DNA of 64,000 nt from an uncultured Candidatus Saccharibacteria bacterium (GTDB lineage Bacteria; Patescibacteriota; Minisyncoccia; Phycocordibacterales; UBA2100). The position numbers were made by a program, and so were the translations under genes. Where the stretch lies: contig CAZUVH010000001.1 of NCBI GenBank assembly GCA_964623775.1, positions 284,784 through 348,783 on the forward strand. Direction: 5' to 3'. The notes beneath the pieces are model-generated. The model was not told the DNA's origin and did no database searches. It saw only the letters and a list, made by a program, of their open reading frames with translations. Shown here one piece after another: positions 8,607 to 32,473 of this stretch. Each line of letters begins with the position of its first letter. The stretch's first letter is position 1.

Positions 8607-9578
8607 ATGAAAAACGATCTCTCAAAACATTTCTCGCAATTTCCCAAGAAGAGGGTACTCGTCATCGGTGATGTAATGCTCGATGAATACATCGGGGGTA
8701 CGGCGGATCGTATCTCACCGGAAGCGCCGATACCGGTGCTTTTGCAGAAAACTGTACGCTACATCCTCGGCGGTGCTGGCAATGTGGCCGCCAATGTCGC
8801 ATCGCTTGGCGGAAAGGTCACTTTGCTCGGCATTGTCGGTAATGACGCGCGGAGTAAGAAACTCAGAGAGCTCTCGCGCGAAAAAAAGATCCAGCCGAAG
8901 TTTGTGAATGACGCAAAACGACCGACCACCACCAAGATCCGCTTTGTGGTCGGTCATCATCAGCTCGTGCGCATGGACATTGAGGAGACCCGATCAATCA
9001 GCGGGGACCTTGAAAACCGCGTCATCAAGGCAATTCGAGCTCTGCCGAAGCACGACATTGTTATCGTCTCGGATTACGCAAAAGGATGTATCACGAAGAA
9101 AGTAATGGATGAATTGCGAAAGAAATTTGGGGCGTCGTCGATTCTCGCCGATATGAAACCCGCGAACGCGCATTTTTTCAAGAATATTCTTGCGATCACA
9201 CCTAATCTAAAAGAGGCAGCCGAACTCACGGGTATTCACGCCACGAATAATGCGCTTGCCGATCGCACCGCAAAATTACTGCAGGAAAGTTTCAATACAT
9301 CCATTATCCTCACGCGCGGTGAGCATGGAGTGACAGTTCTTGAGAAGACCGCAGACAAGCCAGTGCATTTTGGCGCGGAACTCCTCACGGTACGCGATGT
9401 GACTGGCGCGGGCGATACACTCGTCGCTGCGTTTGCGCTCATGTATTCGACAGGAGTTCCATTTGTCGAAGCGGCGGAAGCGGCCAATTTTGCAGCGGGG
9501 ATCGTGGTAGGTGTCGGCGGTACGCACGCGCTCACGAGAAAGGAGTTTCAAAAAAGTTATGATAACTTTACATCATAA
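8607..9578 (+). CDS. hldA: D-glycero-beta-D-manno-heptose 7-phosphate kinase (stand-alone HldE domain I, PfkB family)
   Basis: The N-terminal half is VLVIGDVMLDEYIGGTADRISPEAPIPVL…LGGAGNVAANVASLGGKVTLLGIVGND. The C-terminal PfkB motif is VTGAGDTLVAAFA. Confidence 0.85.
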   Translation: MKNDLSKHFSQFPKKRVLVIGDVMLDEYIGGTADRISPEAPIPVLLQKTVRYILGGAGNVAANVASLGGKVTLLGIVGNDARSKKLRELSREKKIQPKFVNDAKRPTTTKIRFVVGHHQLVRMDIEETRSISGDLENRVIKAIRALPKHDIVIVSDYAKGCITKKVMDELRKKFGASSILADMKPANAHFFKNILAITPNLKEAAELTGIHATNNALADRTAKLLQESFNTSIILTRGEHGVTVLEKTADKPVHFGAELLTVRDVTGAGDTLVAAFALMYSTGVPFVEAAEAANFAAGIVVGVGGTHALTRKEFQKSYDNFTS

Positions 9579-11380
9579 TGGAAGCGATACTCACCAAGCA
9601 TTTTTTTAAGCAGTTCAGTGCTCTTCTGCGCCTCGGCAAGAAGGCGTACGGCCCGTACAAGAAGCAGATTCTCATACTAACCGCACTCGGATTCATAGGA
9701 GGTATTTTCGAGAGTGTCGGTATCAGTGCTGCAATCCCGCTTCTCACATCCGTACTCGCGCTTCACAGTCCTGCATCCGACGTGCTCTCTGTTGCAATGC
9801 AGGGAGTATTTACGTTTCTTGGTGTGCCATTCGTTCCGAGAAATCTTCTCATATTCATCGTGCTGCTCTTCATTGCAAAATCACTGACCTCGCTCTATTT
9901 CAGCTACGTGCAGATCAAGATTACGACGGAATATGATCGCGAGATGCGTGCGCGCACTTTTAGCAGGGTACTGCGGGCGTCGTGGCCGTATTTGATAAAG
10001 CAAAAACTCGGCAATCTCGAGACGCTTCTCATGCTTGATGTTCCGATAAGTACGAGTCTTCTCGTTAAAGTCAGCGCGATGATCACGTTGATTTCAAGTG
10101 TCATCGTGTATTTCATTTTTGCATTCTCAATCTCAGGACTGATCACTGTCATTACATTTGTGATCGGCATTCTCATTTTCTTCTTCATGCGACCGATCAA
10201 TGATCGTGTCCATACGATGGCCAAAGATCGTGCGACCACATACCGAGATACGGTACACCACGTGTCAGAACACGTGAGCGGATTGAAGACCGTAAAGGCA
10301 ATGTACGTAGAGAATGCTGCGATACGTCATGGCGATACTTTGTTTGAGGCGATCAAAGATTACAACCAGCGAATTCAATTCCTCCAGCAGATTGCGGCTC
10401 AGGCAATCCCGCCGATCGGAGTCATCTATATAGGTCTGATTTTGTCACTCGCATTCAAGACACCGTTTATTTCCATCGCCGCATTGCCTGCGGTCCTCTA
10501 TCTCATCTATCGTATTTTCGCCTACATCCAGCAGATGCAAAATAACTTCCAATCGATAAGCGAATACATTCCACACCTTGAACGAGTTATTTACTACGAC
10601 AGTATGGCAGATGATACGCGAGAGGTCGTCTCTGGCTCGTCGCCCTTCTCGTTCTCGAAGGAGATATCTTTTGAGAATGTTTCTTTTTCGTACGATGGTG
10701 CAAAAAATGTTCTCGATAATGTGACTCTCTCAATCCCCAAGGGATCCATGGTCGGAATTGTGGGACCTTCCGGTGCCGGTAAGACCACGTGCGTCGACCT
10801 CATGCTTCGACTCCTCGAGCCCTCAAGTGGTTCAATAAAATTGGACGGTGTGCACAGTAGTGATATCGCTCTCAAGGACTGGCGCCGACACATCGCGTTC
10901 GTATCGCAAGATCTCTTTCTTATTCACGGCACCATAAGGGACAATATCCGCTTTTATGACGACACCATTACCGATGATGGTATCTGGAAGGCGGCGGAAA
11001 TGGCACGAATTGCTGATTTTATCCGCGAGTGTCCGGAAGGACTTGATACAGCTGTTGGCGATCGGGGCATCATGCTCTCCGCTGGCCAGCGTCAAAGAAT
11101 CGTCATCGCTCGGGCACTCGCGCGTCAACCTGAAGTCCTTATTCTCGACGAGGCGACGAGTGCGCTCGACAATGAATCTGAGGCGCACATCAAGCGTGTC
11201 ATTCAGGAATTGAAGGGCCAGCTTACCATCGTCGCGATCGCCCACAGGCTCTCGACGATCATGGATTCAGATCAGCTCATAGTCTTGCAGGATGGTCGTG
11301 TCGTCGAGACTGGCGCGCCAAAAGAGCTCCTTGGAAATACGAATTCGTATTTCTACAAGGTCTATACGATCGGCCAGTAG
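9578..11380 (+). CDS. ABC transporter, fused permease/ATP-binding exporter (MsbA/PglK-like)
   Basis: The N-terminal half has ~6 TM helices. The C-terminal half has Walker A GPSGAGKTT, the signature LSAGQRQRIVIARAL and Walker B ILILDEATSALD. Its ATG overlaps the hldA stop (TAATGG). Confidence 0.9.
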   Translation: MEAILTKHFFKQFSALLRLGKKAYGPYKKQILILTALGFIGGIFESVGISAAIPLLTSVLALHSPASDVLSVAMQGVFTFLGVPFVPRNLLIFIVLLFIAKSLTSLYFSYVQIKITTEYDREMRARTFSRVLRASWPYLIKQKLGNLETLLMLDVPISTSLLVKVSAMITLISSVIVYFIFAFSISGLITVITFVIGILIFFFMRPINDRVHTMAKDRATTYRDTVHHVSEHVSGLKTVKAMYVENAAIRHGDTLFEAIKDYNQRIQFLQQIAAQAIPPIGVIYIGLILSLAFKTPFISIAALPAVLYLIYRIFAYIQQMQNNFQSISEYIPHLERVIYYDSMADDTREVVSGSSPFSFSKEISFENVSFSYDGAKNVLDNVTLSIPKGSMVGIVGPSGAGKTTCVDLMLRLLEPSSGSIKLDGVHSSDIALKDWRRHIAFVSQDLFLIHGTIRDNIRFYDDTITDDGIWKAAEMARIADFIRECPEGLDTAVGDRGIMLSAGQRQRIVIARALARQPEVLILDEATSALDNESEAHIKRVIQELKGQLTIVAIAHRLSTIMDSDQLIVLQDGRVVETGAPKELLGNTNSYFYKVYTIGQ

Positions 11381-11404: not shown

Positions 11405-12049
11405 ATGACCCTCATGAGGTCTCCTTTTGTGACTATCATCGACTACGGCATGGGTAACGTCGGATCAGTACGCAATGCCCTCGAAGCGCTCGGGGCCAAG
11501 GTAAAAATATCGTCCACTCGGGAGGATATTGAGGGCGCGACGCATCTCGTCTTGCCCGGCGTCGGCTCCTTCACGGAAGGAATGAAAAACTTGGAAAAGA
11601 GCGGCGCAATCCAACCATTAACGGAAGCTGTTATCCGGGATAAAAAACCGATTCTTGGCCTTTGTCTTGGGATGCAGATGCTTGCTGAGACGGGTCAGGA
11701 AGGTGGCACCACAAAAGGCTTGGGGTGGGTCAAGGGTGTTGTGAAGCGTCTTGATGTGGATGAAGCCAGATTCCATGTACCACACATCGGGTGGAATGAC
11801 GTCGAGGCGAAATCAACATCTGTCTTGCTCGCAGGTATTAAGCGCACGATCTTTTATTTTGTGCATAGCTATTGTTTCTTTGCTGCAAGCGACACTGTTG
11901 TTGCTGGCACGACGGAGTACGGAGAAAAATTTGCCACAGTCGTCGAGCAAGGCAATATTTTTGGTGTCCAGTTTCATCCTGAGAAGAGCCAGGAGGATGG
12001 ACTGTCGCTCCTGAAGAATTTTTTACGGGTTAGCAACGCTGTGGTATGA
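11405..12049 (+). CDS. HisH-like glutamine amidotransferase (imidazole glycerol phosphate synthase subunit H homolog, WbuY/PseA-partner type)
   Basis: The sequence is IIDYGMGNVGSVRNALEALGA…LPGVGSF…LGLCLGMQML…VQFHPEKS. The 3' end overlaps the next gene. Confidence 0.85.
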   Translation: MTLMRSPFVTIIDYGMGNVGSVRNALEALGAKVKISSTREDIEGATHLVLPGVGSFTEGMKNLEKSGAIQPLTEAVIRDKKPILGLCLGMQMLAETGQEGGTTKGLGWVKGVVKRLDVDEARFHVPHIGWNDVEAKSTSVLLAGIKRTIFYFVHSYCFFAASDTVVAGTTEYGEKFATVVEQGNIFGVQFHPEKSQEDGLSLLKNFLRVSNAVV

Positions 12050-13224
12050 AAAAAAATTTCGATCACACGCGCATTCTCAATAATCTCAGGCGCTGCACGC
12101 GCTGTACGCTTCCCGAAACGCACGAGACTATTCAGTTCGATGAAGAGGGTGTGTGCAACATTTGTCACAATGCTACGTACAAGAAGGAGAAGGTGGACTG
12201 GAAGCATCGTCGGAATGAACTCGAGAAATTGGTTGAGCAACACCGAGGTAAAGGCGATTATGACTGCCTCGTCCCTTTCAGTGGTGGCAAGGATTCTACA
12301 TTCACACTCTGGTATATCGTGCGGGAGCTCGGATTGAAGCCGCTTGTCGCCAGCTTCGATCACGGTTTCTATAGGCCTGGCACACTCGAGAACAATGAGC
12401 GGACGATGCGCAAACTCGGTGTTGATTTCATAAAATTTCGCACCGATTGGCGCATAGTGCGCAAACTCATGCTCGAGTCACTTCGACGAAAGGGTGATTT
12501 TGATTGGCACGCTCATGTGGGCACTTTCGTATTTCCCTTACAGGTGGCCGTAAAGTACCAGATCCCCCTTATTTTCAAGGGAGAGCCGACCTCGGAATAT
12601 ACGGCGTATTCTTCTTACGAGGAGATTGAAGAACAGGATGTGAAGAAACACCACCAGATCAATGATCTAGGTATCGCCGCAGAAGATATGGCGGGGTTCT
12701 TGAAAAAAGACGGCGTTACGCTTCGAGATCTAAAGGCGTACATCTACCCTGGGGCACGCGAAGTGCGGGCGCTCGGAGTACGTCAGGTGCCTCTCGGCTC
12801 GTTCATTCCATGGGATGTGCAATCAAATTACGAGATTATTCATCGCGAACTTGACTGGCAAGGGGCGCGGGTTGAAGGCGTGCCGCCGCAATATCCTTAC
12901 GAGAAGGTCGAATACCAGCTGCAAGGACAGCGCGACTACATCAAATTCATCAAGCGCGGATACGCCCGCACGACGCACCTCACGAGCATCGATATCCGCA
13001 ATGGTCGCATGACCCGCGAAGAAGCGGTGAAGCTCATAGAAAAGTACGAGGGTAAGCGGCCGCAGAGTCTGCCGTATCTCCTAAAAATACTTGGGATCGA
13101 CGAGAAGGAATGGCGGGAGATCGCCGTGACGCAAGCCATCCCTCCGTATGTGCACGATTTCTCAAAAGAACAGGATGACGAAGTGCTTCCGGATATGGCG
13201 CAGTGGGAGCAAAATCCGGACTAA
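12046..13224 (+). CDS. N-acetyl sugar amidotransferase (WbuX/PseA-like, PP-loop ATPase; TIGR03573-type)
   Basis: A Cys-rich N-terminus (CTRCTLPETHE…GVCNICHN) is followed by the PP-loop FSGGKDST. It is paired with HisH/HisF homologs. Confidence 0.8.
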   Translation: MKKNFDHTRILNNLRRCTRCTLPETHETIQFDEEGVCNICHNATYKKEKVDWKHRRNELEKLVEQHRGKGDYDCLVPFSGGKDSTFTLWYIVRELGLKPLVASFDHGFYRPGTLENNERTMRKLGVDFIKFRTDWRIVRKLMLESLRRKGDFDWHAHVGTFVFPLQVAVKYQIPLIFKGEPTSEYTAYSSYEEIEEQDVKKHHQINDLGIAAEDMAGFLKKDGVTLRDLKAYIYPGAREVRALGVRQVPLGSFIPWDVQSNYEIIHRELDWQGARVEGVPPQYPYEKVEYQLQGQRDYIKFIKRGYARTTHLTSIDIRNGRMTREEAVKLIEKYEGKRPQSLPYLLKILGIDEKEWREIAVTQAIPPYVHDFSKEQDDEVLPDMAQWEQNPD

Positions 13225-13254
13225 ATATGCCCCAACACACGAAATGACCTTGTT

Positions 13255-13524
13255 ATGTTCTACGTATACATATTGAAAAGCCGCAAAGATGAAAAATTGT
13301 ACATTGGATACACCAGTGATTTGAAGCGGCGTGTTTCCGAACATAACGAAGGTCAGAACATCTCCACAAAACCCAGACGACCGCTCGATTTGCTATATTA
13401 CGAGGCATACATGTCTCAGGCAGATGCAAAAAAGCGCGAATTTAATCTGAAGAATTCTGCCGGTGCCAAAACTGCACTTAAACGTCGATTACCAGCAAGC
13501 CTGAGACTAGGTCATTTCGTGTGA
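13255..13524 (+). CDS. GIY-YIG nuclease family small protein
   Basis: The sequence MFYVYILKSRKDEKLYIGYTSDLKRRVSEHNEG is a canonical GIY-YIG motif. The 89-aa ORF is wedged between the amidotransferase and the HisF-like gene. Its stop overlaps the next start region. Confidence 0.8.
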   Translation: MFYVYILKSRKDEKLYIGYTSDLKRRVSEHNEGQNISTKPRRPLDLLYYEAYMSQADAKKREFNLKNSAGAKTALKRRLPASLRLGHFV

Positions 13525-13529
13525 GGGGT

Positions 13530-14300
13530 ATGCTCAAAGTGCGCGTCATTCCCGTGCTACTTCTCAAAGACGAGCGCCTGGTCAAGCCGATTAAGTTCGG
13601 CGAAGGTGGCGAGCGCGATGTCGGATGGCCCGTTACCACTGCCCGTATCTACAACTCCCAGGATGCTGACGAGCTCATTTTTCTTGATGTCGAGGCATCT
13701 ATGCACGGCCGAGAATTTCTCGCGTCGACATTGCGAGAGATCGCCTCGGATTGCTTCGTGCCAATTACCGCAGGTGGCGGTATTCGATCCTTGAAGGCGA
13801 TTCAGGACGTGCTTTCGCTTGGGGCGGACAAGGTATCAATAAATGCCTATGCCGTCGAGAACCCCGCTTTCATTACGGAAGCTTCAGAGCGTTTCGGCGC
13901 GCAATGTATCGTGGTCTCAATTGACGTACGAAAAAAAGTGGATGGTTCTTGCGAGGTTTTCACGCATCGCGGCACTGTCCCGACAGGTCTCGAGCCCGTC
14001 GAGTGGGCAAAGCGTGTCGCTGAGCTCGGTGCAGGGGAGATATTATTAACGTCGATCGATCGAGAGGGCACTCTATCGGGGTACGATCTTGAGCTTACTC
14101 GCCTCGTATCGGAATCGGTGCGCATCCCTGTCATAGCGCACGGTGGTGCCGGGACCAGACAGCATTTTGTCGATGCTGTGCAGCAGGCAGGGGTTTCAGC
14201 TGTAGCCGGGGCGTCCATTTTCCACTTCTCGGATTCGAATCTTTCACAGGTAAAGTCGTTTATGTATAATGCCGGCCTTCCTGTACGGCCCGTTGTATGA
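13530..14300 (+). CDS. HisF-like cyclase subunit homolog (WbuZ type)
   Basis: The sequence is MLKVRVIPVLLLKDERLVK…DELIFLDV…ITAGGGIRS…SIDREGTLSGYDLEL…IAHGGAG. ATG 13530 is preferred over GTG 13521. Confidence 0.85.
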   Translation: MLKVRVIPVLLLKDERLVKPIKFGEGGERDVGWPVTTARIYNSQDADELIFLDVEASMHGREFLASTLREIASDCFVPITAGGGIRSLKAIQDVLSLGADKVSINAYAVENPAFITEASERFGAQCIVVSIDVRKKVDGSCEVFTHRGTVPTGLEPVEWAKRVAELGAGEILLTSIDREGTLSGYDLELTRLVSESVRIPVIAHGGAGTRQHFVDAVQQAGVSAVAGASIFHFSDSNLSQVKSFMYNAGLPVRPVV

Positions 14301-14848
14301 CAAAAAAGATTCCTGCAAAAATACTTAGAGGCGAAAAGTGTTCGATTCGTCCTATCGCTTTGTCTGATGTCACCTCAAAGTATGTGCGGTGGCTGAACGA
14401 CAAAGAGGTCAATCAGTATCTTGAAAGCCGATTTTCTCGCGCGACGCTTCCTGGAGTGCGTGCGTACATCAAAAAGGCGATCAAGGATTCGGACACGTAC
14501 TTATTTGCGATTATCGATTCAAAAACAGGTGAACATATAGGCAACATCAAACTTGGCCCAGTCAATCTGCACCACCAATGCGCAGAGATCGGTTTTTTCA
14601 TCGGTGAGAAAAGCTTCTGGGGGAAGGGCTATGCGAGTGAGGCGATCCGACTTATTGAGCAATTTGCCTTTAACGATTTGAAGCTGCATAAACTTACCGC
14701 TGGTGCATATGCCAACAATATCGGGTCAGTGAAACTTCTTGAGAAATGTGGATTTAAAAAGGAGGGTGTCATGAAAGACAACTGTTTCTTTGAGGGCGGA
14801 TTTGTCGATGGTATTCGATTCGGTAAACTTAGTGGACGTAAGATATGA
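14297..14848 (+). CDS. GNAT family N-acetyltransferase (RimJ/RimL-like)
   Basis: The GNAT core is IDSKTGEHIGNIKLGPV…GFFIGEKSFWGKGYASEAIRLIEQFAFNDLKLHKL. Confidence 0.75.
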   Translation: MTKKIPAKILRGEKCSIRPIALSDVTSKYVRWLNDKEVNQYLESRFSRATLPGVRAYIKKAIKDSDTYLFAIIDSKTGEHIGNIKLGPVNLHHQCAEIGFFIGEKSFWGKGYASEAIRLIEQFAFNDLKLHKLTAGAYANNIGSVKLLEKCGFKKEGVMKDNCFFEGGFVDGIRFGKLSGRKI

Positions 14849-16272
14849 AAATAGCGCTATTGTGGACTACACCGGATGAAAAAATAAAAGTGGTACTTGA
14901 CGCGTTCAAAGATGCGGGTCATGAAGTAGTCTACTGGGTTGCTTTCGATGAAAACAAACATCTCATCCCAAATGGCGCAATATTTCATAATCATTTTGAT
15001 GCACTCTCTGCACTTCCTGCAGACAGTTTCAAGAATACAAAGTTCGACCCGCCTTCGGCGGGGTTGATTAAAAAAATGTATCGCACTGAGTCCCTCACGC
15101 TCTCCATGATGAATAAGCATTACAAAGATGCGCCAGTTGACGAGCGACGGCATGTGTACTACACAATGCTTTCGTATTGGAATCGCGTTCTCGACGAGAC
15201 CAAACCCGACGTGGTTATCTTTGGGATCATCCCGCACACGATTTACAATTTTGTTCTTCACGAACTCGCGCTCGAAAAGGGAATCAAGACCGTAAGTTTT
15301 GAGGATATCTGGGTAATTCACAGGACTCTCGTATTTCGTAATTTTTGGAAGGGCAGTGAGGAGTTGCAGGAGGTAATAAAAAGAACGGCAAATAAGCCTA
15401 TTTCTGAAAAAGATTTGAGCGAAGAAATGCGCGAGTATTGGGGCAGCCTGGTCGGTAAAACGCCATATGTCGAGCAGCCGTTCATTGCATTACAGCGCAG
15501 GATGGGCGCTGGCTTGGGCTTATTAGCGCATCGCCTTAAAGTCGCTTTGAGAACTCTTGCTAACGGCACTTTTTTTAAATTTGTGTGGGGTTTTGTTTTG
15601 CGAGTCGGGAAACCAAATCTCATTAGGGAATATGCGCACCATATTACAGAAGTTGATTGGGATACTCCTTTTGTATATTTTCCGCTGCACTATCAGCCGG
15701 AGCGCACGACAATGCCGCAAGGAGACATGTATCACGACCAGTTGCTCGTCATTGAAACTCTCTCCGCTTCGCTGCCGGATGGATGGAAAATCTATGTGAA
15801 AGAGCATCCGATGCAATGGTTGATCAGCAACAAGGAACGATATTCTTCATCGCGTTATCGCGGGTATTACGAGAGAATTGCGGCGATACCTAATGTGCTG
15901 CTCGCACCACTTTCTACAGATTCTTTTACACTCATCGAACGCTCAAAAACTGTTGCGGCAATCACCGGAACTGCTGGCTGGGAGGCACTCTCCAAAGGCA
16001 AGTGCACACTCCTTTTTGGTATGCCATGGTATCGCGATTGTCCGGGCGTGTATCGTATCGACTCAGTAGAGTCGTGCAAAAAAGCTCTCGGGGCCATCAA
16101 GGGTGGCGCTCAAGCCGCAAAAGGAGATCTGTTGCGATTTTTGAAGGCATACGATGAGGTTAGTGTACGTGCCTACATCGAACCACCTCTCGAAGATAAG
16201 CCCCTCATCGATGCTGACGAAAACATCCGGATTCTGGCGAAGTACGCGTGCGATTTTCTTAAGAAACTCTGA
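14845..16272 (+). CDS. KpsS/KpsC-like capsule-polysaccharide-synthesis family protein (Capsule_synth/GT107-like), putative CMP-nonulosonate transferase
   Basis: Motifs align to E. coli KpsS: FVYFPLHYQPERT (cf. LAVLQVYNDSQ), IYVKEHPMQ (cf. VIKHHPMD) and VAAITGTAGWEAL (cf. VVTINSTAGISAL). The start uses an ATGA overlap. Confidence 0.6.
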   Translation: MKIALLWTTPDEKIKVVLDAFKDAGHEVVYWVAFDENKHLIPNGAIFHNHFDALSALPADSFKNTKFDPPSAGLIKKMYRTESLTLSMMNKHYKDAPVDERRHVYYTMLSYWNRVLDETKPDVVIFGIIPHTIYNFVLHELALEKGIKTVSFEDIWVIHRTLVFRNFWKGSEELQEVIKRTANKPISEKDLSEEMREYWGSLVGKTPYVEQPFIALQRRMGAGLGLLAHRLKVALRTLANGTFFKFVWGFVLRVGKPNLIREYAHHITEVDWDTPFVYFPLHYQPERTTMPQGDMYHDQLLVIETLSASLPDGWKIYVKEHPMQWLISNKERYSSSRYRGYYERIAAIPNVLLAPLSTDSFTLIERSKTVAAITGTAGWEALSKGKCTLLFGMPWYRDCPGVYRIDSVESCKKALGAIKGGAQAAKGDLLRFLKAYDEVSVRAYIEPPLEDKPLIDADENIRILAKYACDFLKKL

Positions 16273-20447: not shown

Positions 20448-21437
20448 ATGAACTCTAAACACCTCGCAGGGAAGAATATTCTCATAACGGGAGGTACCGG
20501 TACCTTTGGTACTGCGATGACTCGGCACCTTTTGGATACGACCGACGTACGGAGGGTGACTATTTTCAGCAGAGATGAATACAAGCAGAGCGTGATGGCG
20601 GGAAATTTTGGTAACGATCCGAGGCTCAATTTTTTTCTTGGTGATATTCGTGACGCTGCTCGATTGCGTCGCGCTTTCAATCAAATCGATATCGTCATAC
20701 ATGCCGCAGCTCTTAAGCAGGTTCCTGCGCTCGAATATAATCCGACCGAAGCGATTGATACAAACATCACAGGAACGAAAAATGTGATCGATGCCGCGCT
20801 TGATCGAGATGTCGAACGCGTACTCGTTGTTTCCAGCGACAAGGCCGTCCAGCCCGTCAATCTCTATGGCGCTACAAAAATGTGCGCGGAACGCTTGGCA
20901 ATCGCGGCGAACGTATACCGGGGTAAAAAAGGAAAGACGCGTATCAGTGCAGTGCGCTATGGCAACGTGATCGGAAGTCGCGGGTCGCTCATAGAGCTTA
21001 TTGAGAAACAGAGGGCAAGCGGCGTACTGCCACTCACCGATCCGCGTATGACGCGTTTCTGGCTCCATATCGGTGACGTGATGGGACTAGTTACGGAAAT
21101 ACTCGCCATTATGGAAGGTGGCGAGATCTTCGTCCCGAAAATGAAAAGTCTTCGCGTCGAAGATGTGATGCGCGTCGTAGCGCCTGAGTGCAAGATCAAG
21201 GTTGTCGGTATGCGACCCGGAGAAAAGTTGCACGAAACCCTCGTTACAGAGCACGAGGCCACCCGAACCAAAGATATTGGAAATCTCTATGTTGTTTTGC
21301 CGGAATTTCATTCATGGAGCTCGAAAGTTTCAATTTTCGCAAATAAGAGGTCGTTTGACGCAAAGGAGATATACGTGAGCAACAATGAAAAGTATCTGCT
21401 TGGACAAAAGGACGTAAAAAAGATACTCAAACTATAG
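20448..21437 (+). CDS. pseB: UDP-N-acetylglucosamine 4,6-dehydratase (inverting), PseB/FlaA1 type
   Basis: It is collinear with H. pylori PseB (ILITGGTGTFG…FSRDEYKQS…RLNFFLGDIRD…HAAALKQVPALEYNP…DKAVQPVNLYGATKMC…VRYGNVIGSRGS…MTRFW…GGEIFVPKM…GMRPGEKLHE). Confidence 0.85.
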   Translation: MNSKHLAGKNILITGGTGTFGTAMTRHLLDTTDVRRVTIFSRDEYKQSVMAGNFGNDPRLNFFLGDIRDAARLRRAFNQIDIVIHAAALKQVPALEYNPTEAIDTNITGTKNVIDAALDRDVERVLVVSSDKAVQPVNLYGATKMCAERLAIAANVYRGKKGKTRISAVRYGNVIGSRGSLIELIEKQRASGVLPLTDPRMTRFWLHIGDVMGLVTEILAIMEGGEIFVPKMKSLRVEDVMRVVAPECKIKVVGMRPGEKLHETLVTEHEATRTKDIGNLYVVLPEFHSWSSKVSIFANKRSFDAKEIYVSNNEKYLLGQKDVKKILKL

Positions 21438-21475: not shown

Positions 21476-22396
21476 ATGGCGGATCGGAAATCAAAGCTCG
21501 TACTCGGTACGGTGCAGCTCGGGATGCCGTACGGCGTCAACAACGCTACGGGCCAGCCGTCGATAGACGAAGCCTTTTCAATACTTGATATGGCTTTTGA
21601 CGCGGGGATCGATACTTTCGATACCGCATATGCATACGGGAACTCCGAAGAGGTGATCGGAAAGTGGCTTGTAAACCGGGGTAAAAGAGGTGTGCGCGTC
21701 ATTACGAAATTCATGCCGACCGCGCTCGCTGAAAATCAGCAGGCCTCGCCAGCCGACATCATCGAAGGACAGCTACATACATCTTTGAAACGACTCGGAG
21801 TAGAAAGCGTGGAGGGTTACTTACTCCCCACGCCTCAGTATCTCTATTCGGCTGGCGTAATCGAAGGTCTGCGACACGTAAAAGCCCGGGGCCTTACGCG
21901 CAATATTGGTGTGTCGATTTACGATGAAGAGGACGCTCTCAAGGTTGTTGATATGGGAATCGATTACATTCAAATTTCTTACAATGCGCTTGATCAACGT
22001 CTTGATAAAACAGATTTCTTCCAAAGGGCAGAGCGCAGGGGTGTTACCGTTTTTGCGCGAGGGCCATTTCTTCAGGGACTCCTCCTGATGGACCCTGAAC
22101 AAATCCCTCAGCATCTACTCTACACAAAGGAATACGTAGTTCGTTTTCGAGCGATCGCCCAGAGTCATGCACTTACTCCACACCAGGCAGCACTCATGTT
22201 CGTCTACCGCCAACCAGGTATTGCCCGGATTGTTTTTGGTGTGGAGAAGTTGACGCAACTCGAGGAGGGTCTTGAGTCGGTCAAAATGGCTGAGAAAAGT
22301 TCAGACGACAATCTCGTAGCGGAAATTAGAAACGCGTTTAAGAACATTGACCGCTCAGTGGTCAATCCAACTTTATGGAACAAAAAAAAGAATTAA
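21476..22396 (+). CDS. aldo/keto reductase
   Basis: AKR motifs are present (LGTVQLGMPYG…DTAYAYGNSEEVIGKWL). The start is at MADRKSK. Confidence 0.8.
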   Translation: MADRKSKLVLGTVQLGMPYGVNNATGQPSIDEAFSILDMAFDAGIDTFDTAYAYGNSEEVIGKWLVNRGKRGVRVITKFMPTALAENQQASPADIIEGQLHTSLKRLGVESVEGYLLPTPQYLYSAGVIEGLRHVKARGLTRNIGVSIYDEEDALKVVDMGIDYIQISYNALDQRLDKTDFFQRAERRGVTVFARGPFLQGLLLMDPEQIPQHLLYTKEYVVRFRAIAQSHALTPHQAALMFVYRQPGIARIVFGVEKLTQLEEGLESVKMAEKSSDDNLVAEIRNAFKNIDRSVVNPTLWNKKKN

Positions 22397-22401
22397 GATC
22401 C

Positions 22402-22956
22402 ATGATCGTCGTGCTCGCCTCTGATATTAAAAAAGAGGGTAATTTGTGGGCGCTCGACGAATGGTCGCTCATAAGAGTAGCGGCGGGCGAATGCTTCTAT
22501 AAGAAAGACCCATCGGACCGCGTGATTGTCGTAGGGGGCGGCAGCCCAGGCGACGACCGACCGACGGTGGCCTCTCTCATGAGCCGATATCTCATTGATA
22601 AGGGAGTACCTGAGTCGGCAATAGTGTCTGAAGATACCTCTCTCTCGACGTTGCAGGAGTTGCTGCAAGTGCAAGGTTTTACTGAGGAGACGGGGCCGAA
22701 AGACATCAGTATAATCTCAAGTGAGTGGCATTTAGAGAGAGTTAGAGCCATACTTGAGTACTTTCCAAAGCTCTCAACGCTGAATAAGTCTGCGCCAAGT
22801 TTTCTTGCCGCCGAAGATATACTTTTGCGCGAAAACCCAGTCGAATGGGAAAACTTTATCGAAAAATCACGTAAAAATCCAGAGACGGAAACTCGGCGAG
22901 CCAATGAAAAAAAGGGCGTCGCTCAAATTATCGACGGGACCTATCACTACCGATAG
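22402..22956 (+). CDS. DUF218 (YdcF/SanA/ElyC-like) domain protein
   Basis: The pattern VIVVGGGS…SLMSRYLIDKGVPESAIVSEDTSLST…ISSEWHLERV is typical of DUF218. Confidence 0.55.
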   Translation: MIVVLASDIKKEGNLWALDEWSLIRVAAGECFYKKDPSDRVIVVGGGSPGDDRPTVASLMSRYLIDKGVPESAIVSEDTSLSTLQELLQVQGFTEETGPKDISIISSEWHLERVRAILEYFPKLSTLNKSAPSFLAAEDILLRENPVEWENFIEKSRKNPETETRRANEKKGVAQIIDGTYHYR

Positions 22957-22985: not shown

Positions 22986-23744
22986 CTATTTCCGGATACC
23001 TTGTCGCGGATATTCTTTTTCATGCAGCGTATTGAGCGCAGCAACATTGGGATTTTGGTCGAGAAATTCTATTACGTCAGGGACGCTGATGATGCGATTT
23101 GACGTAGAGAATCGATCATAGAGCTTCGAAATAAGTTCATAATCTTCCTGATAGTCGAGGGTGAGCCGATATTGTGGACGCGCAAAAATTCCGCGTGCTT
23201 CTACCATCTTCCCGATGCGGAATTCACCCGTTTTGTTTTCATGAATATAAGGGGTCACATGTTCTCGTTCATAGATCTCCCGAGCCTCGGTACACGCCTT
23301 CTCAAGCGCCTTGAATGAAAAGACCTCACAGTCCAATCCGCGCGGAAACGTACGTTCTCCGGGGAGGGCGTTGCTTACGTAATCACATTTCCCATGTTTG
23401 TACACGTCTATGACCTCGGTGATGATACTGGGGTCGAGAAGGGGGCAGTCGCTAGTGATCCGTACGATAGTTTCAATTTTAAATTGCTGTGCAGCGTCGA
23501 AATAGCGCGAAAGAACGTCGTCTCGCGATCCGCGAAAACAAGAATATCTGTTTCGCGAGCAAAAATCGGCAATCGCGTCATCTTCTGTCTCAGTGGTCGT
23601 CGCTACAATGACGGAGTCGATGCCGCGTACCTGTTTGACGCGTTCAATGACATGCTGGAGTACCGGCTTGCCTGCAAGTGATAAAAGCACTTTGCCTGGA
23701 AGACGCGTGGAACTCATGCGAGCTTGGATGATGACTCCGATCAT
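22986..23744 (-). CDS. acylneuraminate cytidylyltransferase family protein (PseF/SpsF-like CMP-sugar synthetase)
   Basis: The N-terminus is MIGVIIQARMSSTRLPGKVL. Further motifs are …VIVATT…FRGS..DVLSRY and …RITSDCPLLD. The start is at M32 of the listed ORF (23744). Confidence 0.75.
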   Translation of the reverse strand: MIGVIIQARMSSTRLPGKVLLSLAGKPVLQHVIERVKQVRGIDSVIVATTTETEDDAIADFCSRNRYSCFRGSRDDVLSRYFDAAQQFKIETIVRITSDCPLLDPSIITEVIDVYKHGKCDYVSNALPGERTFPRGLDCEVFSFKALEKACTEAREIYEREHVTPYIHENKTGEFRIGKMVEARGIFARPQYRLTLDYQEDYELISKLYDRFSTSNRIISVPDVIEFLDQNPNVAALNTLHEKEYPRQGIRK

Positions 23745-23805
23745 GTTGTCACTATATATCCCGAAGCACCTTAGCAAAAGTACACTTGCAAGAGCGGTTA
23801 AATTA

Positions 23806-23834
23806 TTGACAGCATCTACACTGTCCGCTAACGT
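23806..23834 (+). promoter_or_regulatory. candidate sigma70-like promoter (TTGACA-17-TAACGT) for the downstream cytidylyltransferase gene
   Basis: TTGACA lies at 23806–23811. A 17-nt spacer follows, then TAACGT at 23829–23834, 6 nt before ATG 23841. The -10 element is weak. Confidence 0.3.
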
Positions 23835-23840
23835 CACCCT

Positions 23841-24584
23841 ATGTTGACCGCTATAGTGCAGGCGAGGATGTCCTCGACAAGACTCCCCGGGAAAGTTCTA
23901 AAAGAAGTCCACAATAGGCCACTACTTTCCTACCTCATTGAGCGTTTACAGAGGGTGTCTGAAATAGAGAAGATCGTCGTAGCAACCACTGATAGTGTCG
24001 CTGATGATGCGATCGCCGAGTACTGCAAAAAAAATGGAATTTCTGTTTTCCGTGGATCGGAAAACGATGTACTCGATCGTTACATGAAGGCTGCCATGGA
24101 ATACAGCGCAAATCCCATAGTCCGCATCACAGGTGATTGCCCACTACTTGATGTTGATACGGTGCAAAAGCTGATCGAAGTGTATAAAAAAGGTGGGGTC
24201 GATTATGTGGTGACGGGGCAGTCTTTTACTGAGGGATTTGATTGTGAAATTTTTTCCCAAAAAATGCTCGAACTCTCTCATGTAAATGCCACAAAGTCGT
24301 CCGAGCGCGAACATGCAACACTGTATATGTACACTCATCCCGAGGTGTGTAGAAAATTCATCCTTGAAAATTCAACAGACGACAGTAGTTACCGCGTGAC
24401 AGTCGACGAACCGGAGGACTTTGCTGTGGTGAAAACTATCATTGAAGGTATCTATCCGAATAATTCAGAATTCACCGCAGGCGACATTAAAAATTTTTTA
24501 GACTCCCACCCTGAGATCAGAGACCTTAATAAGGGCATTGTTCGGAATGAAGGTCTCCTTAAATCGCTAGCAGATGAGAAGTAA
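23841..24584 (+). CDS. acylneuraminate cytidylyltransferase family protein (PseF/SpsF-like), paralog of 22986–23744, divergently transcribed
   Basis: The N-terminus is MLTAIVQARMSSTRLPGKVL. Further motifs are …VVATT…FRGSENDVLDRY and …RITGDCPLLD. Confidence 0.75.
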   Translation: MLTAIVQARMSSTRLPGKVLKEVHNRPLLSYLIERLQRVSEIEKIVVATTDSVADDAIAEYCKKNGISVFRGSENDVLDRYMKAAMEYSANPIVRITGDCPLLDVDTVQKLIEVYKKGGVDYVVTGQSFTEGFDCEIFSQKMLELSHVNATKSSEREHATLYMYTHPEVCRKFILENSTDDSSYRVTVDEPEDFAVVKTIIEGIYPNNSEFTAGDIKNFLDSHPEIRDLNKGIVRNEGLLKSLADEK

Positions 24585-29214: not shown

Positions 29215-30378
29215 ATGAGCGCAAAGAAAGGTAAAAAGGATTTGATCCCGTACTCTCGTCAAACTGTCGATGCGGACGACATACGTGAAGTTGTTAAGAC
29301 CCTGAAGGCGCCGTTTCTTACGCAAGGGCCAAAAATCAAAGAATTTGAAGCGTTGGTTGCAAAATTTACAGGTACACGATTCGCCGTTGCGTTCTCAAAT
29401 GGCACGACCGCTCTTCATGCGGCCTATTCTGCTGCAGGCATCCGCGCGAATGACGAGGTCATCGTTCCCGCCCTGACGTTTGCTGCCACAAGCAATGCCG
29501 CTTTGTATCTCGGTGCGAAACCAGTCTTTGCAGATAGTGATATTCATACGGGCAATGTTGATCCGGCTGCGGTAGAGAGAAATGTAACGGGAAAAACGAA
29601 GGCGATTGTGGCGGTGGATTATGCGGGCAATCCCGCTGATCTTGCCGGGATGCGCAATATTGCCAAGAAACATAACCTTGTATTTATCGAAGATGGCGCC
29701 CAGAGCCTTGGCGCGACCTATCAGAAGCGATCCGTTGGTACGCAGGCAGACATGACGATGTTTAGCTTCCATCCGGTCAAATCAATTACCACGGCGGAGG
29801 GCGGGATAATCGTCACAGATAATGAGCGATACTACGAACATCTCATGATGTTTCGTACGCACGGAATGACTGCGGATTCAAAAAAAATGAATAACAAAAC
29901 GTATGCCAAATGGCACCGAGAGATGCATGTTCTCGGCAATAACTACCGTCTGAGTGATGTTCATGCTGCACTTGGTGTATCGCAGATGCGCAAACTACGA
30001 GGATTTATCGTTAAGCGGCGCGCGGCGGCGAAACGATATTTTTCGCTACTCAAAAATTTCGAGGGAATAAAGTTGCCGCCAATAGAGATTCTCGAATCGT
30101 CCGCGTGGCACCTTTTTCCAGTGCATGTGAATCCCCGTCACCGCGACGCGATTTTCAATGGACTTTTGGCAGCGGGCATCGGTGTGCAAGTTCATTATCT
30201 ACCGGTCTATATGCATCCGTACTACCAAGGTCTCGGATACCAAGAAGGGATTTGTCCAAATGCGGAGAAGTACGCCTTCTCAGAAATCTCGATACCGTTG
30301 TTTCCCGGTATTACACAGCGAGAGCAAGTTTACATCGCCAAGACCCTGATCAGGCTCGTGAAGGACCTCGATCGCTAG
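29215..30378 (+). CDS. pseC: UDP-4-amino-4,6-dideoxy-N-acetyl-beta-L-altrosamine transaminase-like DegT aminotransferase
   Basis: It is collinear with H. pylori PseC (…KTKAIVAVDYAGNPADL…FSFHPVKSITTAEGGIIVTDNERYYEHLMMFRTHGM…NYRLSDVHAALGVSQ…GIGVQVHYLPVY…). Confidence 0.85.
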   Translation: MSAKKGKKDLIPYSRQTVDADDIREVVKTLKAPFLTQGPKIKEFEALVAKFTGTRFAVAFSNGTTALHAAYSAAGIRANDEVIVPALTFAATSNAALYLGAKPVFADSDIHTGNVDPAAVERNVTGKTKAIVAVDYAGNPADLAGMRNIAKKHNLVFIEDGAQSLGATYQKRSVGTQADMTMFSFHPVKSITTAEGGIIVTDNERYYEHLMMFRTHGMTADSKKMNNKTYAKWHREMHVLGNNYRLSDVHAALGVSQMRKLRGFIVKRRAAAKRYFSLLKNFEGIKLPPIEILESSAWHLFPVHVNPRHRDAIFNGLLAAGIGVQVHYLPVYMHPYYQGLGYQEGICPNAEKYAFSEISIPLFPGITQREQVYIAKTLIRLVKDLDR

Positions 30379-30418: not shown

Positions 30419-31027
30419 ATGATCGCCATCGTTGATTATGGAATGGGGAACGTTAGATCAATGGTAAACGCGCTTGCGCGTATCGGCGCAGAAGGCATCG
30501 TTACATCAAAAGACAAAGATTTTGCACGTGCCACGCATATTATTTTCCCAGGTGTCGGAGCATTCAGTGATGGAATGCGTGAATTACATACGAGGGGAAT
30601 CATCCCGCTCCTTGAGCGTGAGGTATTGAAGCGAAAAAAGCCGTTTCTCGGAGTGTGTTTGGGCATGCAGTTGCTCATGGAAAAAGGTGAAGAAGGTGGC
30701 GAGATAGATGGTCTCGGATGGATATCTGGGAGGACGCGACGTCTTAGGGTCGACGAGCTCAAATTTCGTTTACCGCATATAGGGTGGAATGACGTACGCG
30801 TCAATGACTCAAAATTATTCACCGAAGTGAGTGCGCTCGATTTCTACTTCGTGCACAGCTTCGTGGTCGATCCCGAAGACGCGACGCTTGTCACAGGGAC
30901 TTGTGATTACGGTGAATCGTTCGTTGCGAGTGTGCAAAAGAACAACATATACGGCGTCCAGTTTCATCCGGAAAAAAGTCAGAAGAGTGGTTCACGGGTA
31001 CTCAAGAATTTTGTAAGCCTATGCTGA
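30419..31027 (+). CDS. HisH-like glutamine amidotransferase (second copy)
   Basis: The sequence is MIAIVDYGMGNVRSMVNAL…FPGVGAFSDGM…LGVCLGMQLLM…VQFHPEKS. Confidence 0.85.
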   Translation: MIAIVDYGMGNVRSMVNALARIGAEGIVTSKDKDFARATHIIFPGVGAFSDGMRELHTRGIIPLLEREVLKRKKPFLGVCLGMQLLMEKGEEGGEIDGLGWISGRTRRLRVDELKFRLPHIGWNDVRVNDSKLFTEVSALDFYFVHSFVVDPEDATLVTGTCDYGESFVASVQKNNIYGVQFHPEKSQKSGSRVLKNFVSLC

Positions 31028-31770
31028 AGATTCGTATAATTCCCACGCTCACAGTCAAGGCGGAGCGATTGGTAAAAAGTGTTAAATTCGAGAACCACCG
31101 AAATATTGGGAGCTCAATTGCGGCGGTACGAGTTTTCAATGCGCGCGACGTTGACGAGCTCGTCTTTCTGGATATCGATGCGCGTATGCGGGGTATTGAT
31201 ACGAGGTTACTCGAAGATGTGACAAAAGAATGCTGCATGCCGGTGACACTTGGTGGCGGCGTGAAAACCCTCGAAGACTTCAAAAAGATGCTCGCGATCG
31301 GGGCAGATAAGGTTGCAATAAATACTGTCGCTCTCGATGATCCCGATCTTATCGATGCGGCATCAAAAAGGTATGGAGCTCAATGCGTCGTCGTCTCGAT
31401 TGATGTCCGAAAAATCAATAGTGCGTACGAAGTATTTGGATGTGGTGGCAAGCAGGCAAGCGGAAAGGATCCGGTCGCCTGGGCAAAGGAAGTTGAGAAA
31501 CGAGGTGCTGGGGAGATTTTACTCACCTCGATTGATAACGATGGAGTTATGGAGGGATATGATCTCGAATTGATCAAAAAGGTCTCCTCTGCTGTGAGGA
31601 TACCCATCATTGCTTCGGGCGGAGCGGGGATACCAGCGCATTGTGTCGAGGCTGTTACCGCAGGCGCTTCTGCCGTCGCGGCAGCGAGCATCTTTCAGTA
31701 CACACAAACGACGCCGTCATCGATAAAGGAAGCGTTGAGGAATGCCGGTTTCCCCACGCGGGCCTCATAG
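31021..31770 (+). CDS. HisF-like cyclase subunit homolog (second copy)
   Basis: The sequence is MLKIRIIPTLTVKAERLVK…DELVFLDIDA…TLGGGVKT…SIDNDGVMEGYDLEL…IASGGAG. The start overlaps the upstream stop. Confidence 0.85.
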   Translation: MLKIRIIPTLTVKAERLVKSVKFENHRNIGSSIAAVRVFNARDVDELVFLDIDARMRGIDTRLLEDVTKECCMPVTLGGGVKTLEDFKKMLAIGADKVAINTVALDDPDLIDAASKRYGAQCVVVSIDVRKINSAYEVFGCGGKQASGKDPVAWAKEVEKRGAGEILLTSIDNDGVMEGYDLELIKKVSSAVRIPIIASGGAGIPAHCVEAVTAGASAVAAASIFQYTQTTPSSIKEALRNAGFPTRAS

Positions 31771-31819
31771 GCGCTTAAATTGGCATTCACGTGTTATTTC
31801 TGTAAGATGGTGAGCAACT

Positions 31820-32473
31820 ATGGGACGTACGAAGAAAACGAAGCAAATATCGCATTGGGCGGGTAAAAACGGTAATGCGTATGTAGACCGTAATCCGCAG
31901 ACCACAAAACAAATGGAGAGCCTCTACGCGAAAGATTATGGTGTAAGCCGAAGTTCGATGGATAAAGAATTTTTAAAATCGTTCAACAAGAAGAGTGCGT
32001 CCATTCTCGAAGTGGGGGCGAACGTTGGTACGCAGCTGCAATTTTTGCACGAGCACGGGTTTGCAAAACTTCTTGGCATCGATGTGAATCGCCACGCCAT
32101 AAAAGAAGCAAAGCGTCTTCGCCCGGACGTGGATATTATCGAGGCGTCGGGTTTTGACCTGCCGTTTAAAGACGGAGCGTTTGACCTCGTCTATACTTCA
32201 GGCGTTCTCATTCATATCTCACCAAAAGATATTAAAGACATCATTCGTGAGATGTATCGCGTGTCCCGAAAATATATTTGGGGATTCGAATACTATGCGC
32301 CGAAATATACAGCGGTGACCTACCGCGGAAAAAAGGATCTTTTATGGAAGACGGATTTTGCGGCGCTTTTCCAAAAAGAATTTCCGGATCTAAAAGTCGT
32401 GAAGGAAAAGATCTATAAAATGTCAGACGGTGTAAACGCGACCAAGATGTATTTATTGAAAAAAAGTAACTAA
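31820..32473 (+). CDS. class I SAM-dependent methyltransferase (pseudaminic-acid-biosynthesis-associated methylase-like)
   Basis: Motif I is SILEVGANVGTQL, followed by …LLGIDVN…LVYTSGVLIHISP. The 217-aa gene is embedded between HisF-like and PseA-like genes. That placement matches the ~210-aa methyltransferase family described next to Pse genes. Confidence 0.7.
   Translation: MGRTKKTKQISHWAGKNGNAYVDRNPQTTKQMESLYAKDYGVSRSSMDKEFLKSFNKKSASILEVGANVGTQLQFLHEHGFAKLLGIDVNRHAIKEAKRLRPDVDIIEASGFDLPFKDGAFDLVYTSGVLIHISPKDIKDIIREMYRVSRKYIWGFEYYAPKYTAVTYRGKKDLLWKTDFAALFQKEFPDLKVVKEKIYKMSDGVNATKMYLLKKSN

Follow-up and report, generated by a model that had tools for sequence, protein, structure and literature searches.

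Which enzymes attach the pseudaminic acid (Pse) made by a glycan-assembly island of the Patescibacteria, or candidate phyla radiation (CPR), to its acceptor? The stretch of contig CAZUVH010000001.1 analyzed here (64 kb, referred to as the window) encodes Pse synthesis, and no Maf protein, sialyltransferase family member or other known class of enzyme using ulosonates activated with cytidine monophosphate (CMP) was found in it. It does encode two soluble proteins, P1 (14845..16272, + strand; 475 amino acids) and P2 (36599..38134, + strand; 511 amino acids). Both reading frames start with ATG, and an earlier note on this DNA had placed them at exactly these positions. No function is given for homologues of P1 or P2 in any naming source, all of which list them as hypothetical. 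For these two families, so far named only "hypothetical protein", we propose a specific and testable function. P1 and P2 are probably cytoplasmic, peripheral glycosyltransferases (GTs) of the GT-B fold that use CMP-activated Pse derivatives as donors, and they most likely attach modified Pse to a surface glycan. This reading, drawn from sequence and predicted structure, is favored because both proteins are homologous to the transferases KpsS1, KpsC and WbbB, carry a distinctive glutamate together with a K[ED]HP motif, are predicted to adopt a GT-B fold and are encoded among genes for Pse synthesis.

P1, P2 and their nearest characterized relatives

P1 and P2 align at 25% identity over 313 amino acids (BLASTP, E = 1e-11), and hhalign comparison of their family profiles (45 sequences) gives a probability of 99.8% and E = 1.7e-27 over 435 columns. 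Judged from these alignments, the two proteins are distant paralogues. No transmembrane-like segments are present in either. Their AlphaFold2 models have predicted local distance difference test scores of 90.9 (P1) and 93.6 (P2), and each contains two complete Rossmann domains plus a helical insertion of approximately 100 residues. Foldseek searches of both models against the PDB returned generic GT-B enzymes at template modeling (TM) scores of 0.2-0.33, with WbbB reaching the highest TM-score among the matches listed for P1 and a CMP-dependent polysialyltransferase appearing among those for P2. Structure prediction, suggested as a check by the earlier note, yields confident models and confirms the GT-B fold at the level of the models, but the Foldseek comparison does not discriminate between families.

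A second suggested check, a hidden Markov model search against Pfam Capsule_synth (PF05159, gathering cut-off 20 bits), succeeds for P1, which scores 30.7 bits (E = 2.8e-7, residues 300-403 only). P2 reaches 15.4 bits and its homology is seen through profile comparison instead. Relatives of the two proteins score 53.5 bits (KpsS1-like protein of Acinetobacter baumannii), 44.8 bits (Mariluticola), 38.4 bits (Klebsiella) and 32.4 bits (Rhizobium). The P2 family appears to straddle the threshold, because a P2-type protein of another CPR locus (L036) reaches 27.9 bits and about a third of P2's close homologues carry a precomputed PF05159 match, compared with the 15.4 bits of P2 itself. Despite this score, the matches of P2 to P1, to the KpsS1-like protein and to the C-terminal module of KpsC (KpsC-C) make its homology secure at the sequence level.

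According to the account of Walklett 2024 given in PMC12887879, A. baumannii KpsS1 transfers Pse5Ac7Ac with retention of configuration and is the founding member of family GT118. The same account places GT118 among four related families of retaining ulosonic acid transferases, the others being GT99 (WbbB), GT107 (KpsC) and GT140 (KrkA) (PMC12887879). The earlier note had cited KpsS-like proteins of Acinetobacter as proposed Pse transferases; for KpsS1 this activity is described there as shown and not merely proposed. In many bacteria the PF05159 members Gtr59, KpsS1 and KpsS2 adjoin nonulosonate modules, and they have been predicted to be nonulosonate (NulO) transferases (PMC4487303). Our assignment extends this known gene-neighborhood rule for NulO transferases to a little-studied group.

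The comparator used here is a 480-amino acid open reading frame of an A. baumannii capsule (K) locus, preceded by psaA-F, which include a canonical PseG, and by a wzx-like reading frame. We call it KpsS1-like on the basis of its position in the locus and its Y131-E132 numbering, not of an accession. KpsC and KpsS of Escherichia coli UTI89, taken from public records, served as comparators for transferases of 3-deoxy-D-manno-oct-2-ulosonate (Kdo). The KpsS1-like protein is matched by the P1 family with a probability of 98.9% (hhalign, E = 2.2e-17, 311 columns) and by the P2 family with 98.1% (E = 7.4e-14, 266 columns), compared with 84% (E = 7e-6, 84 columns) and 22% (E = 1e-3), respectively, for E. 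coli KpsS. Pairwise identity of P1 and P2 to the KpsS1-like protein is 26-33% over about 140-160 amino acids, BLAST seeing the C-domain only, and a tblastn search of 7.3 Gb of plasmid records with P2 retrieved the KpsS1-like A. baumannii protein at E = 3e-13. Two A. baumannii records of that plasmid collection, NZ_CP077849.1 (3.66 Mb) and NZ_CP104448.1 (4.09 Mb), are chromosome-sized, contain the capsule K locus and appear to be chromosomes filed as plasmids. Among PDB entries, the P1-family profile matches KpsC (E = 1.3e-8) and WbbB (E = 0.019) and the P2-family profile matches KpsC (E = 0.009). The only NCBIfam match of P2 is to NF046086, a Tannerella family of transferases for Pse or legionaminic acid (Leg), at E = 0.003 and 16.6 bits against a cut-off of 200 and in the C-domain only; P1 does not match NF046086.

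Because the profile scores are far stronger to the KpsS1-like protein than to E. coli KpsS, the nearest characterized relative of P1 and P2 is, as far as profiles can tell, KpsS1 (GT118) and not a GT107 enzyme. The label "GT107-type" given to both proteins by the earlier note does not hold: the HP-motif histidine is present, but the aspartate of the QXXXD motif is replaced by glutamate and similarity to KpsC and KpsS is limited to 60-100 residues carrying the C-domain motifs. Its core idea, that P1 and P2 are candidate CMP-nonulosonate transferases, is supported, specifically for Pse, by their far closer relationship to the KpsS1-like protein than to Kdo enzymes. P1 and P2 add deeply divergent members to an enzyme type that is already known and do not constitute a new one.

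The catalytic residues of this superfamily are best described for KpsC. Its N-terminal module (KpsC-N) uses Glu66 as the base, Asp160 of the invariant QXXXD motif as the covalent nucleophile and the HP-motif histidine as the general acid, and a double-displacement mechanism has been established for KpsC (PMC10148158). The general acid is printed there as "His94", a number that we reject: the E. coli UTI89 sequence reads V-K-V-H194-P-D196 and identifies the residue as His194. This numbering is consistent with the Asp196 of the same paper (UTI89 KpsC, L094 13838-15865).

The translation of P1 contains a PLHYQPE motif (15682..15702, + strand) with E286 at the predicted site of the KpsC covalent nucleophile and a KEHP motif (15799..15810, + strand) whose H321 corresponds to the histidine that serves as HP-motif general acid in CMP-ulosonate transferases. 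For P1 this equivalence is drawn through the hhalign alignment of P1 with P2 combined with that of P2 with KpsC-C. P2 carries the corresponding motifs PLQVEPE (QXXXE; 37544..37564, + strand), whose E322 is aligned with the nucleophile Asp165 of KpsC-C, and KDHP (37661..37672, + strand), with H357 as the general acid equivalent. In the alignment of the P2-family profile with 6mgd (KpsC-C), PlQvqPE lies on PGQVESD165 with E322 on the adduct-forming aspartate, and KDHP is aligned to K-V-H194-P of KpsC-N; the KEHP motif of P1 is aligned with YVKVHP of KpsC in 6mgb. Q284, P285 and E286 of P1 are invariant across 45 homologues, as are K319-E320-H321-P322 in the P1 family and P316, Q318, P321, E322 and H357 in the P2 family alignment.

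Of the 291 family members that could be parsed, 290 have a glutamate, preceded by proline, at the nucleophile position, and K[ED]HP occurs throughout the P family; both features also extend to distant full-length relatives. This glutamate is present as well in the KpsS1-like protein (YPIHFHPE) and in the relatives from nonulosonate loci of Klebsiella, Mariluticola and Rhizobium. E. coli KpsS and KpsC carry aspartate (QVYND, QTFND and QVEDD), the UTI89 KpsS sequence reading LQVYND237SQ (QXXXD), with IKHHP and TAGISAL as its other conserved blocks. Among the sequences examined, glutamate goes with proteins of nonulosonate loci and aspartate with Kdo enzymes. Of the blocks that the earlier note described as common to P1, P2 and E. 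coli KpsS, only KxHP is literally conserved, while the first is homologous but has glutamate in place of the KpsS aspartate.

The pseudaminic acid island and its distribution

The glycan-assembly island takes up almost all of the window, reaching to about 57.5 kb; from 58.7 kb onward there are housekeeping genes (SecA, GatB). It encodes a PseB-like inverting 4,6-dehydratase of uridine diphosphate N-acetylglucosamine (UDP-GlcNAc) (20448..21437, + strand; TIGR03589, 398.8 bits against a cut-off of 407.75), the aminotransferase PseC (29215..30378, + strand; TIGR03588, 432 bits against 423.5), a PseH-type GNAT N-acetyltransferase (33648..34112, + strand; E = 4.5e-15 to the PseH half of PseG-PseH fusions, with a weak TIGR03585 match) and the Pse synthase PseI (34141..35181, + strand; TIGR03586, 455.8 bits against 340.25), the only NeuB-family gene of the window. 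With PseC and PseI above their NCBIfam cut-offs and PseB and PseH present, these family assignments identify the nonulosonate of the island as Pse. Two genes for CTP_transf_3 (Pfam) cytidylyltransferases lie back to back and are divergently transcribed: CTa (22986..23837, - strand), a candidate CMP-Pse-derivative synthetase with only 33-37% identity to real PseF over 46-61 amino acids, and CTb (23841..24584, + strand). These divergent paralogues are 41% identical to each other, and their clade is remote from canonical PseF (22-37% identity, mostly over short N-terminal stretches, where real PseFs share 56-59%); a canonical-type PseF is present in other CPR loci (L007, L056). KdsA and KdsD were not found among all open reading frames of at least 150 amino acids in the window. 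The inventory of one NeuB-family synthase, two CTP_transf_3 genes and no KdsA or KdsD in the window agrees with that of the earlier note, which overlooked that a recognizable PseG is missing, an absence that raises a hydrolase explanation for one of the paralogues. The only SIS-domain protein of the window (7477-8475) was considered as KdsD and rejected, as it scores 223 bits against GmhA and 17 bits against KdsD.

Several further genes point to modification, export and ligation of the glycan. A DUF218 protein (Pfam; 22375..22956, + strand) is a candidate replacement for the PseG hydrolase step. An MsbA/PglK-type ATP-binding cassette (ABC) half-transporter (9578..11380, + strand; ABC_membrane and ABC_tran) is a candidate flippase or exporter of the lipid-linked glycan. 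Two sets of genes for acetamidino formation are present, one comprising HisH, a WbuX amidotransferase and HisF (11405..14300, + strand; GATase, His_biosynth, TIGR03573 333 bits) and the other HisH, HisF, a methyltransferase and a WbuX amidotransferase (30419..33632, + strand; TIGR03573 387.5 bits). The stop codon of a GNAT acyltransferase gene (14297..14848, + strand; Acetyltransf_3 and related families) overlaps the start codon of P1. A membrane protein with Wzy_C (O-antigen-ligase/PglL-type) and TPR domains (52290..54500, + strand; Wzy_C 65.6 bits, 11 transmembrane-like segments) is a candidate en-bloc glycan ligase. The island also encodes four conventional GTs (GT4, GT9 and GT2 types) and pathways for heptose and guanosine diphosphate (GDP)-sugars. 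With more than 50 kb lying in the window, the island points to a large genetic investment by Kaiserbacteria-like and other Patescibacteria in a surface glycan with heavily modified Pse.

A number of its genes are unusual in their own right. Directly after P1 lies an ATP-citrate-lyase-like trio (16293-19014) made up of an ATP-grasp_2 plus Citrate_bind protein, a CoA_binding plus Ligase_CoA protein and a 227-amino acid Citrate_synt protein; it looks like a citryl-coenzyme A (CoA) synthetase plus lyase, is unexpected in the Pse island of a reduced CPR bacterium and may supply acyl-CoA for N-acylation. Between the cytidylyltransferase genes and PseC (25770-29209), an ATP-grasp ligase, an aspartate-aminotransferase-like protein and a 4-hydroxy-2-oxovalerate aldolase (331 bits against 229) are encoded, which suggests that an unusual amino or hydroxy acid is made and then ligated to an amino group of Pse. 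Within the first amidotransferase set, a small GIY-YIG reading frame (89 amino acids, Logan gene call; about 13255-13524, L002) between WbuX (12046-13224) and HisF (13521-14300) may represent a homing-endonuclease-like insertion. Two polytopic membrane proteins with about 12 and 8 transmembrane-like segments (48729-50486 and 50443-52251), neither of which has a Pfam or NCBIfam match, are encoded upstream of the Wzy_C/TPR protein, and the membrane proteins of this stretch (48729-54500) are candidates for polymerase, GT-C or ligase roles in glycan export.

The SecA protein of the window is 79% identical to that of Candidatus Kaiserbacteria, and all named SecA matches are from Patescibacteria. 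By this marker the genome is that of a Kaiserbacteria-like member of the Patescibacteria, a monoderm group lacking lipopolysaccharide (LPS). CPR bacteria have been placed in a monoderm clade. GT9 enzymes are normally tied to the LPS core, and the window of this monoderm genome encodes a heptose pathway (4740-5990, 7477-9578 and 41380-42183) with GmhA (223 bits), a PfkB-family kinase, a cytidylyltransferase-like/mannose-6-phosphate-isomerase-C protein and a GT9 "heptosyltransferase". The CPR bacterial envelope is poorly understood; neither lpxC nor kdsA is present in a curated genome of a Parcubacterium (PMC5220378). A full-text literature search found no paper that pairs Patescibacteria with nonulosonic acid, and the only pairing with pseudaminic acid was a poultry-microbiome study. 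A glycan with a nonulosonate cap would be an obvious candidate for a role in recognizing host cells or evading phages.

To investigate the distribution of these genes, we scanned 185,579 species-representative genomes and identified 132 relatives of P1. The best 80 were examined and all are from metagenome-assembled genomes of Patescibacteria. In 48 Patescibacteria loci of at least 15 kb, P1-type genes are found near genes for an ABC exporter (45 loci) and for PseC-like (42), PseB-like (41) and PseI-like proteins (36); CTP_transf_3 also belongs to these neighbors, which occur in 36-45 of the 48 loci, and P2 lies within 10 kb of the P1-type gene in eight. Among 89 P1-type genes in Patescibacteria, 61 have the ABC exporter as the recognized gene immediately upstream and 35 are immediately followed by pseB, the typical order being ABC exporter, P1, pseB. 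At least two P-family genes occur in 22 of the 80 loci, some with P1-type genes in tandem, and one locus (L056) encodes two NeuB proteins alongside two of the P1 type. A compact syntenic island on a JGI contig carries both paralogues, two cytidylyltransferases and one NeuB. Searching with the P2 profile returned 8,754 clusters (50% identity) at E <= 1e-3, of which 606 reach E <= 1e-30. CPR bacteria are not the only carriers of the P1 subfamily, because the Rhizobium sp. WL3 plasmid NZ_CP042825.1 (L092 10376-16225) encodes a full-length relative with 28.5% identity over 97% of P1 (E = 2e-44). This gene lies within a run of four encoding "hypothetical proteins" of about 450-510 amino acids, in a neuC/NeuB locus with a capsule-type ABC-2 transporter and KpsF. 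The Klebsiella and Mariluticola relatives are likewise located in nonulosonate loci.

Alternative roles and a proposed mechanism

A number of observations weigh against P1 and P2 being Pse transferases. P2 falls below the Capsule_synth cut-off. The top Foldseek matches include UDP-GlcNAc 2-epimerases and do not single out Kdo or NulO transferases. CTa and CTb are too divergent to name; their best NCBIfam matches are KdsB-type models at 69-76 bits, far under every NCBIfam cut-off (193-255 for these models). The absence of kds genes holds for the 64-kb window, which is one part of the genome. An initiating phosphoglycosyltransferase was not found in the window. The island has no recognizable PseG, and P2-type genes can directly follow pseI/pseH, where pseG often lies. 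Lastly, the YE base motif of KpsS1 is absent, the aligned positions being F126-G127 in P1 and A149-P150 in P2. An invariant N-domain histidine (H131 in P1, H157 in P2) is located in the same loop, 4-7 residues downstream, and is by alignment the best candidate for an acceptor-activating base. Both the glutamate-for-aspartate exchange between the nonulosonate and Kdo branches and the histidine-for-YE exchange within the nonulosonate branch are clear targets for mutagenesis.

The missing PseG leads to an alternative that we consider unlikely, namely that one paralogue, most likely P2, is a non-orthologous PseG substitute and the other alone is a Pse transferase. The substitute would be a GT-B-fold hydrolase freeing 2,4-diacetamido-2,4,6-trideoxy-L-altrose from its UDP carrier for PseI. 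Canonical PseG was not found in the window or in any of the 44 CPR pse loci in which PseB, PseC and PseI are in reach, PseG is itself a GT-B enzyme, and hydrolyzing UDP-GlcNAc 2-epimerases such as NeuC are among the top Foldseek matches. P2-type genes immediately follow pseI/pseH with overlapping start and stop codons in two loci (L007 and L008), and a GNAT domain is joined to one member of the P2 family (P0143), just as PseG and PseH are often fused. Since either role would be expected in every pse locus, selecting loci by their P1 relatives cannot itself separate a transferase from a PseG substitute, and the argument against substitution rests on coexistence with PseG, on motifs and on paralogue number. 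The P family and canonical PseG occur together in a CPR locus (L036, with both P1- and P2-types), in the A. baumannii K locus and on the Klebsiella and Mariluticola plasmids. The HP motif and the glutamate at the nucleophile position are hallmarks of CMP-ulosonate chemistry and not of UDP-sugar hydrolysis. Paralogue number likewise argues for transferases, given the 22 loci with at least two P-family genes and the pairing of two NeuB with two P1-type genes in L056.

Direct sequence searches did not identify P1 or P2 as PseG: there was no match to the NCBIfam PseG model (TIGR03590) even at E values up to 10, and phmmer --max against two real PseG proteins gave nothing better than E = 1.7. The DUF218 protein provides an independent hydrolase candidate. 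DUF218 occurs in 22 of the 44 CPR pse loci, is encoded between pseF and pseI in L007 (7866-8477) and is fused to a PseH GNAT domain in L070 (6581-7669); the protein usually found fused to PseH in Proteobacteria is PseG. This gene context makes DUF218 a candidate for a non-orthologous replacement of PseG. The N-terminal part of a further GNAT fusion (L039) was considered as a divergent PseG or P-family domain and rejected, as it is a methyltransferase related to that at 31820-32473 of the window.

We give similarly little credence to the idea that P1 and P2 work together as a polymerase, much as the two KpsC modules do, producing a Pse homopolymer or a polymer of alternating linkages for export by the ABC transporter. 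Two paralogous modules would recall KpsC-N and KpsC-C, P1-type genes are tightly linked to the ABC exporter and stand in tandem in some loci, and the Rhizobium relative belongs to a capsule-type ABC-2 locus. However, a P2 gene lies within 10 kb in only eight of the 48 P1-type loci of Patescibacteria, and the four conventional GTs, the heptose and GDP-sugar pathways and the Wzy_C ligase point to a hetero-oligosaccharide. KpsS1, moreover, adds a single Pse per repeat unit (PMC4487303).

It is highly improbable that P1 and P2 belong to the KpsS/KpsC (GT107) type of beta-Kdo transferase and form a Kdo linker or cap from CMP-Kdo supplied by the two KdsB-like cytidylyltransferases: the Capsule_synth membership of P1, the PDB matches to KpsC and WbbB, the sub-threshold KdsB matches of both cytidylyltransferases and an adjoining ABC exporter as in group 2 capsule loci speak for it, but the window lacks KdsA and KdsD and its SIS protein is GmhA, the host is monoderm and Kaiserbacteria-like with a curated Parcubacterium genome lacking kdsA and lpxC, the QXXXD aspartate is glutamate in all but one of the 291 family members, profile similarity is weak to E. 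coli KpsS and strong to the KpsS1-like protein, Pse genes are the neighbors in most loci, the KdsB matches fall far short of their cut-offs and the exporter is of the MsbA/PglK and not the KpsMT type.

We therefore return to P1 and P2 as Pse transferases. In the mechanism that we infer, including its donor, retaining stereochemistry, base residue, acceptor and export route, Pse would be made from UDP-GlcNAc by PseB, PseC, PseH, a further hydrolase step and PseI. Its N-acyl groups would be elaborated by the two acetamidino systems, the GNAT enzymes and the ATP-grasp ligase, and the products activated by the two divergent cytidylyltransferases. The GT4, GT9 and GT2 enzymes would assemble a lipid-linked oligosaccharide, to which P1 and P2 would then attach the Pse residues. 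In this reaction the invariant glutamate of PL(H/Q)xxPE would act as the covalent nucleophile in place of the KpsC/WbbB aspartate and the HP-motif histidine as the general acid, and double displacement would retain the configuration to give an alpha-Pse linkage as with KpsS1. The MsbA/PglK-type ABC exporter would flip this glycan, after which the Wzy_C/TPR protein would join it to a protein or wall polymer serving as acceptor on the surface of the monoderm Kaiserbacteria-like cell.

The earlier note had assigned P1 and P2 to two different CMP-activated derivatives. Distinct donors are plausible and are favored by the presence of two cytidylyltransferase paralogues and of two modification gene sets, but the island has one PseB, one PseC and one PseI; a single donor used for two linkages or two acceptors is equally possible. 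A more speculative extension, which we put forward as doubtful, couples the P1-type transferase to the ABC exporter encoded upstream: Pse would be a terminal cap that ends assembly and licenses export. By analogy, and just as tentatively, such a cap would parallel the beta-Kdo cap that WbbB adds to O-antigens in ABC-transporter-dependent pathways. If so, the Wzy_C/TPR protein would attach the capped glycan to surface proteins or pili, which could mediate contact between episymbiont and host. As a corollary of this doubtful extension, the glutamate nucleophile of PL(H/Q)xxPE would be diagnostic of a nonulosonate-specific branch within the superfamily of retaining ulosonic acid transferases, and in the CPR subfamilies a histidine base would stand in for the YE glutamate of KpsS1.

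Comparison with known transferases

P1 and P2 can be compared with four groups of known proteins. KpsC and KpsS (GT107) and WbbB (GT99) are retaining beta-Kdo transferases that share with them a GT-B-derived C-terminal CMP-binding domain, the HP-motif histidine, an acidic residue four positions after Q/H past the first C-domain strand, a helix with the pattern (S/T)xxG-E-A and probably a double-displacement retaining mechanism. In contrast to these enzymes, P1 and P2 have glutamate for the QXXXD aspartate, similarity covers only about 60-100 residues, the island contains no Kdo pathway in the window and there is no membrane-anchoring C-terminal region. GT99 and GT107 have a reduced N-domain (PMC12887879), whereas a full N-terminal Rossmann domain and a helical insertion of about 100 amino acids are predicted for P1 and P2.

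The Gtr59/KpsS-type PF05159 proteins (Kenyon et al. 2015, PMC4487303) resemble P1 and P2 in being Capsule_synth-family members encoded next to a nonulosonate module and predicted to be retaining NulO transferases, while the P1 and P2 subfamilies are essentially restricted to Patescibacteria (best 80 of 132 loci). Tanf_01245 and BFO_1060 (NF046086) transfer Pse or Leg derivatives in the general O-glycosylation system of Tannerella forsythia. They contain a TagB-like domain, and the match of P2 to their family is weak and sub-threshold while P1 has none, but the HP motif and the neighboring NulO module are common to both systems. In Tannerella, a terminal modified Pse (Pse5Am7Gra-type) would be placed on a lipid-linked O-glycan before the latter is transferred to surface proteins, the same pathway logic as proposed here.

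KpsS1 (GT118) differs from P1 and P2, to which it is only 26-33% identical, in several respects. Its proposed base Glu132 of the YE motif is replaced by glycine in P1 and proline in P2, which have the invariant histidine 4-7 residues downstream, and it has HK where P1 and P2 have HP. KpsS1 functions in a Wzx/Wzy capsule pathway of a diderm bacterium, whereas P1 and P2 belong to a monoderm CPR bacterium and are encoded together with a Wzy_C ligase and an ABC exporter of the MsbA/PglK type. Homology to KpsS1 nevertheless covers about two thirds of the protein (266-311 hhalign columns). The motif P-x-H/Q-x-x-P-E with glutamate at the nucleophile-equivalent position, VK(D/E)H and TAGxEA are all shared, and all three are soluble proteins of 460-510 amino acids, encoded beside a pse module and with a CMP-Pse derivative as the predicted donor.

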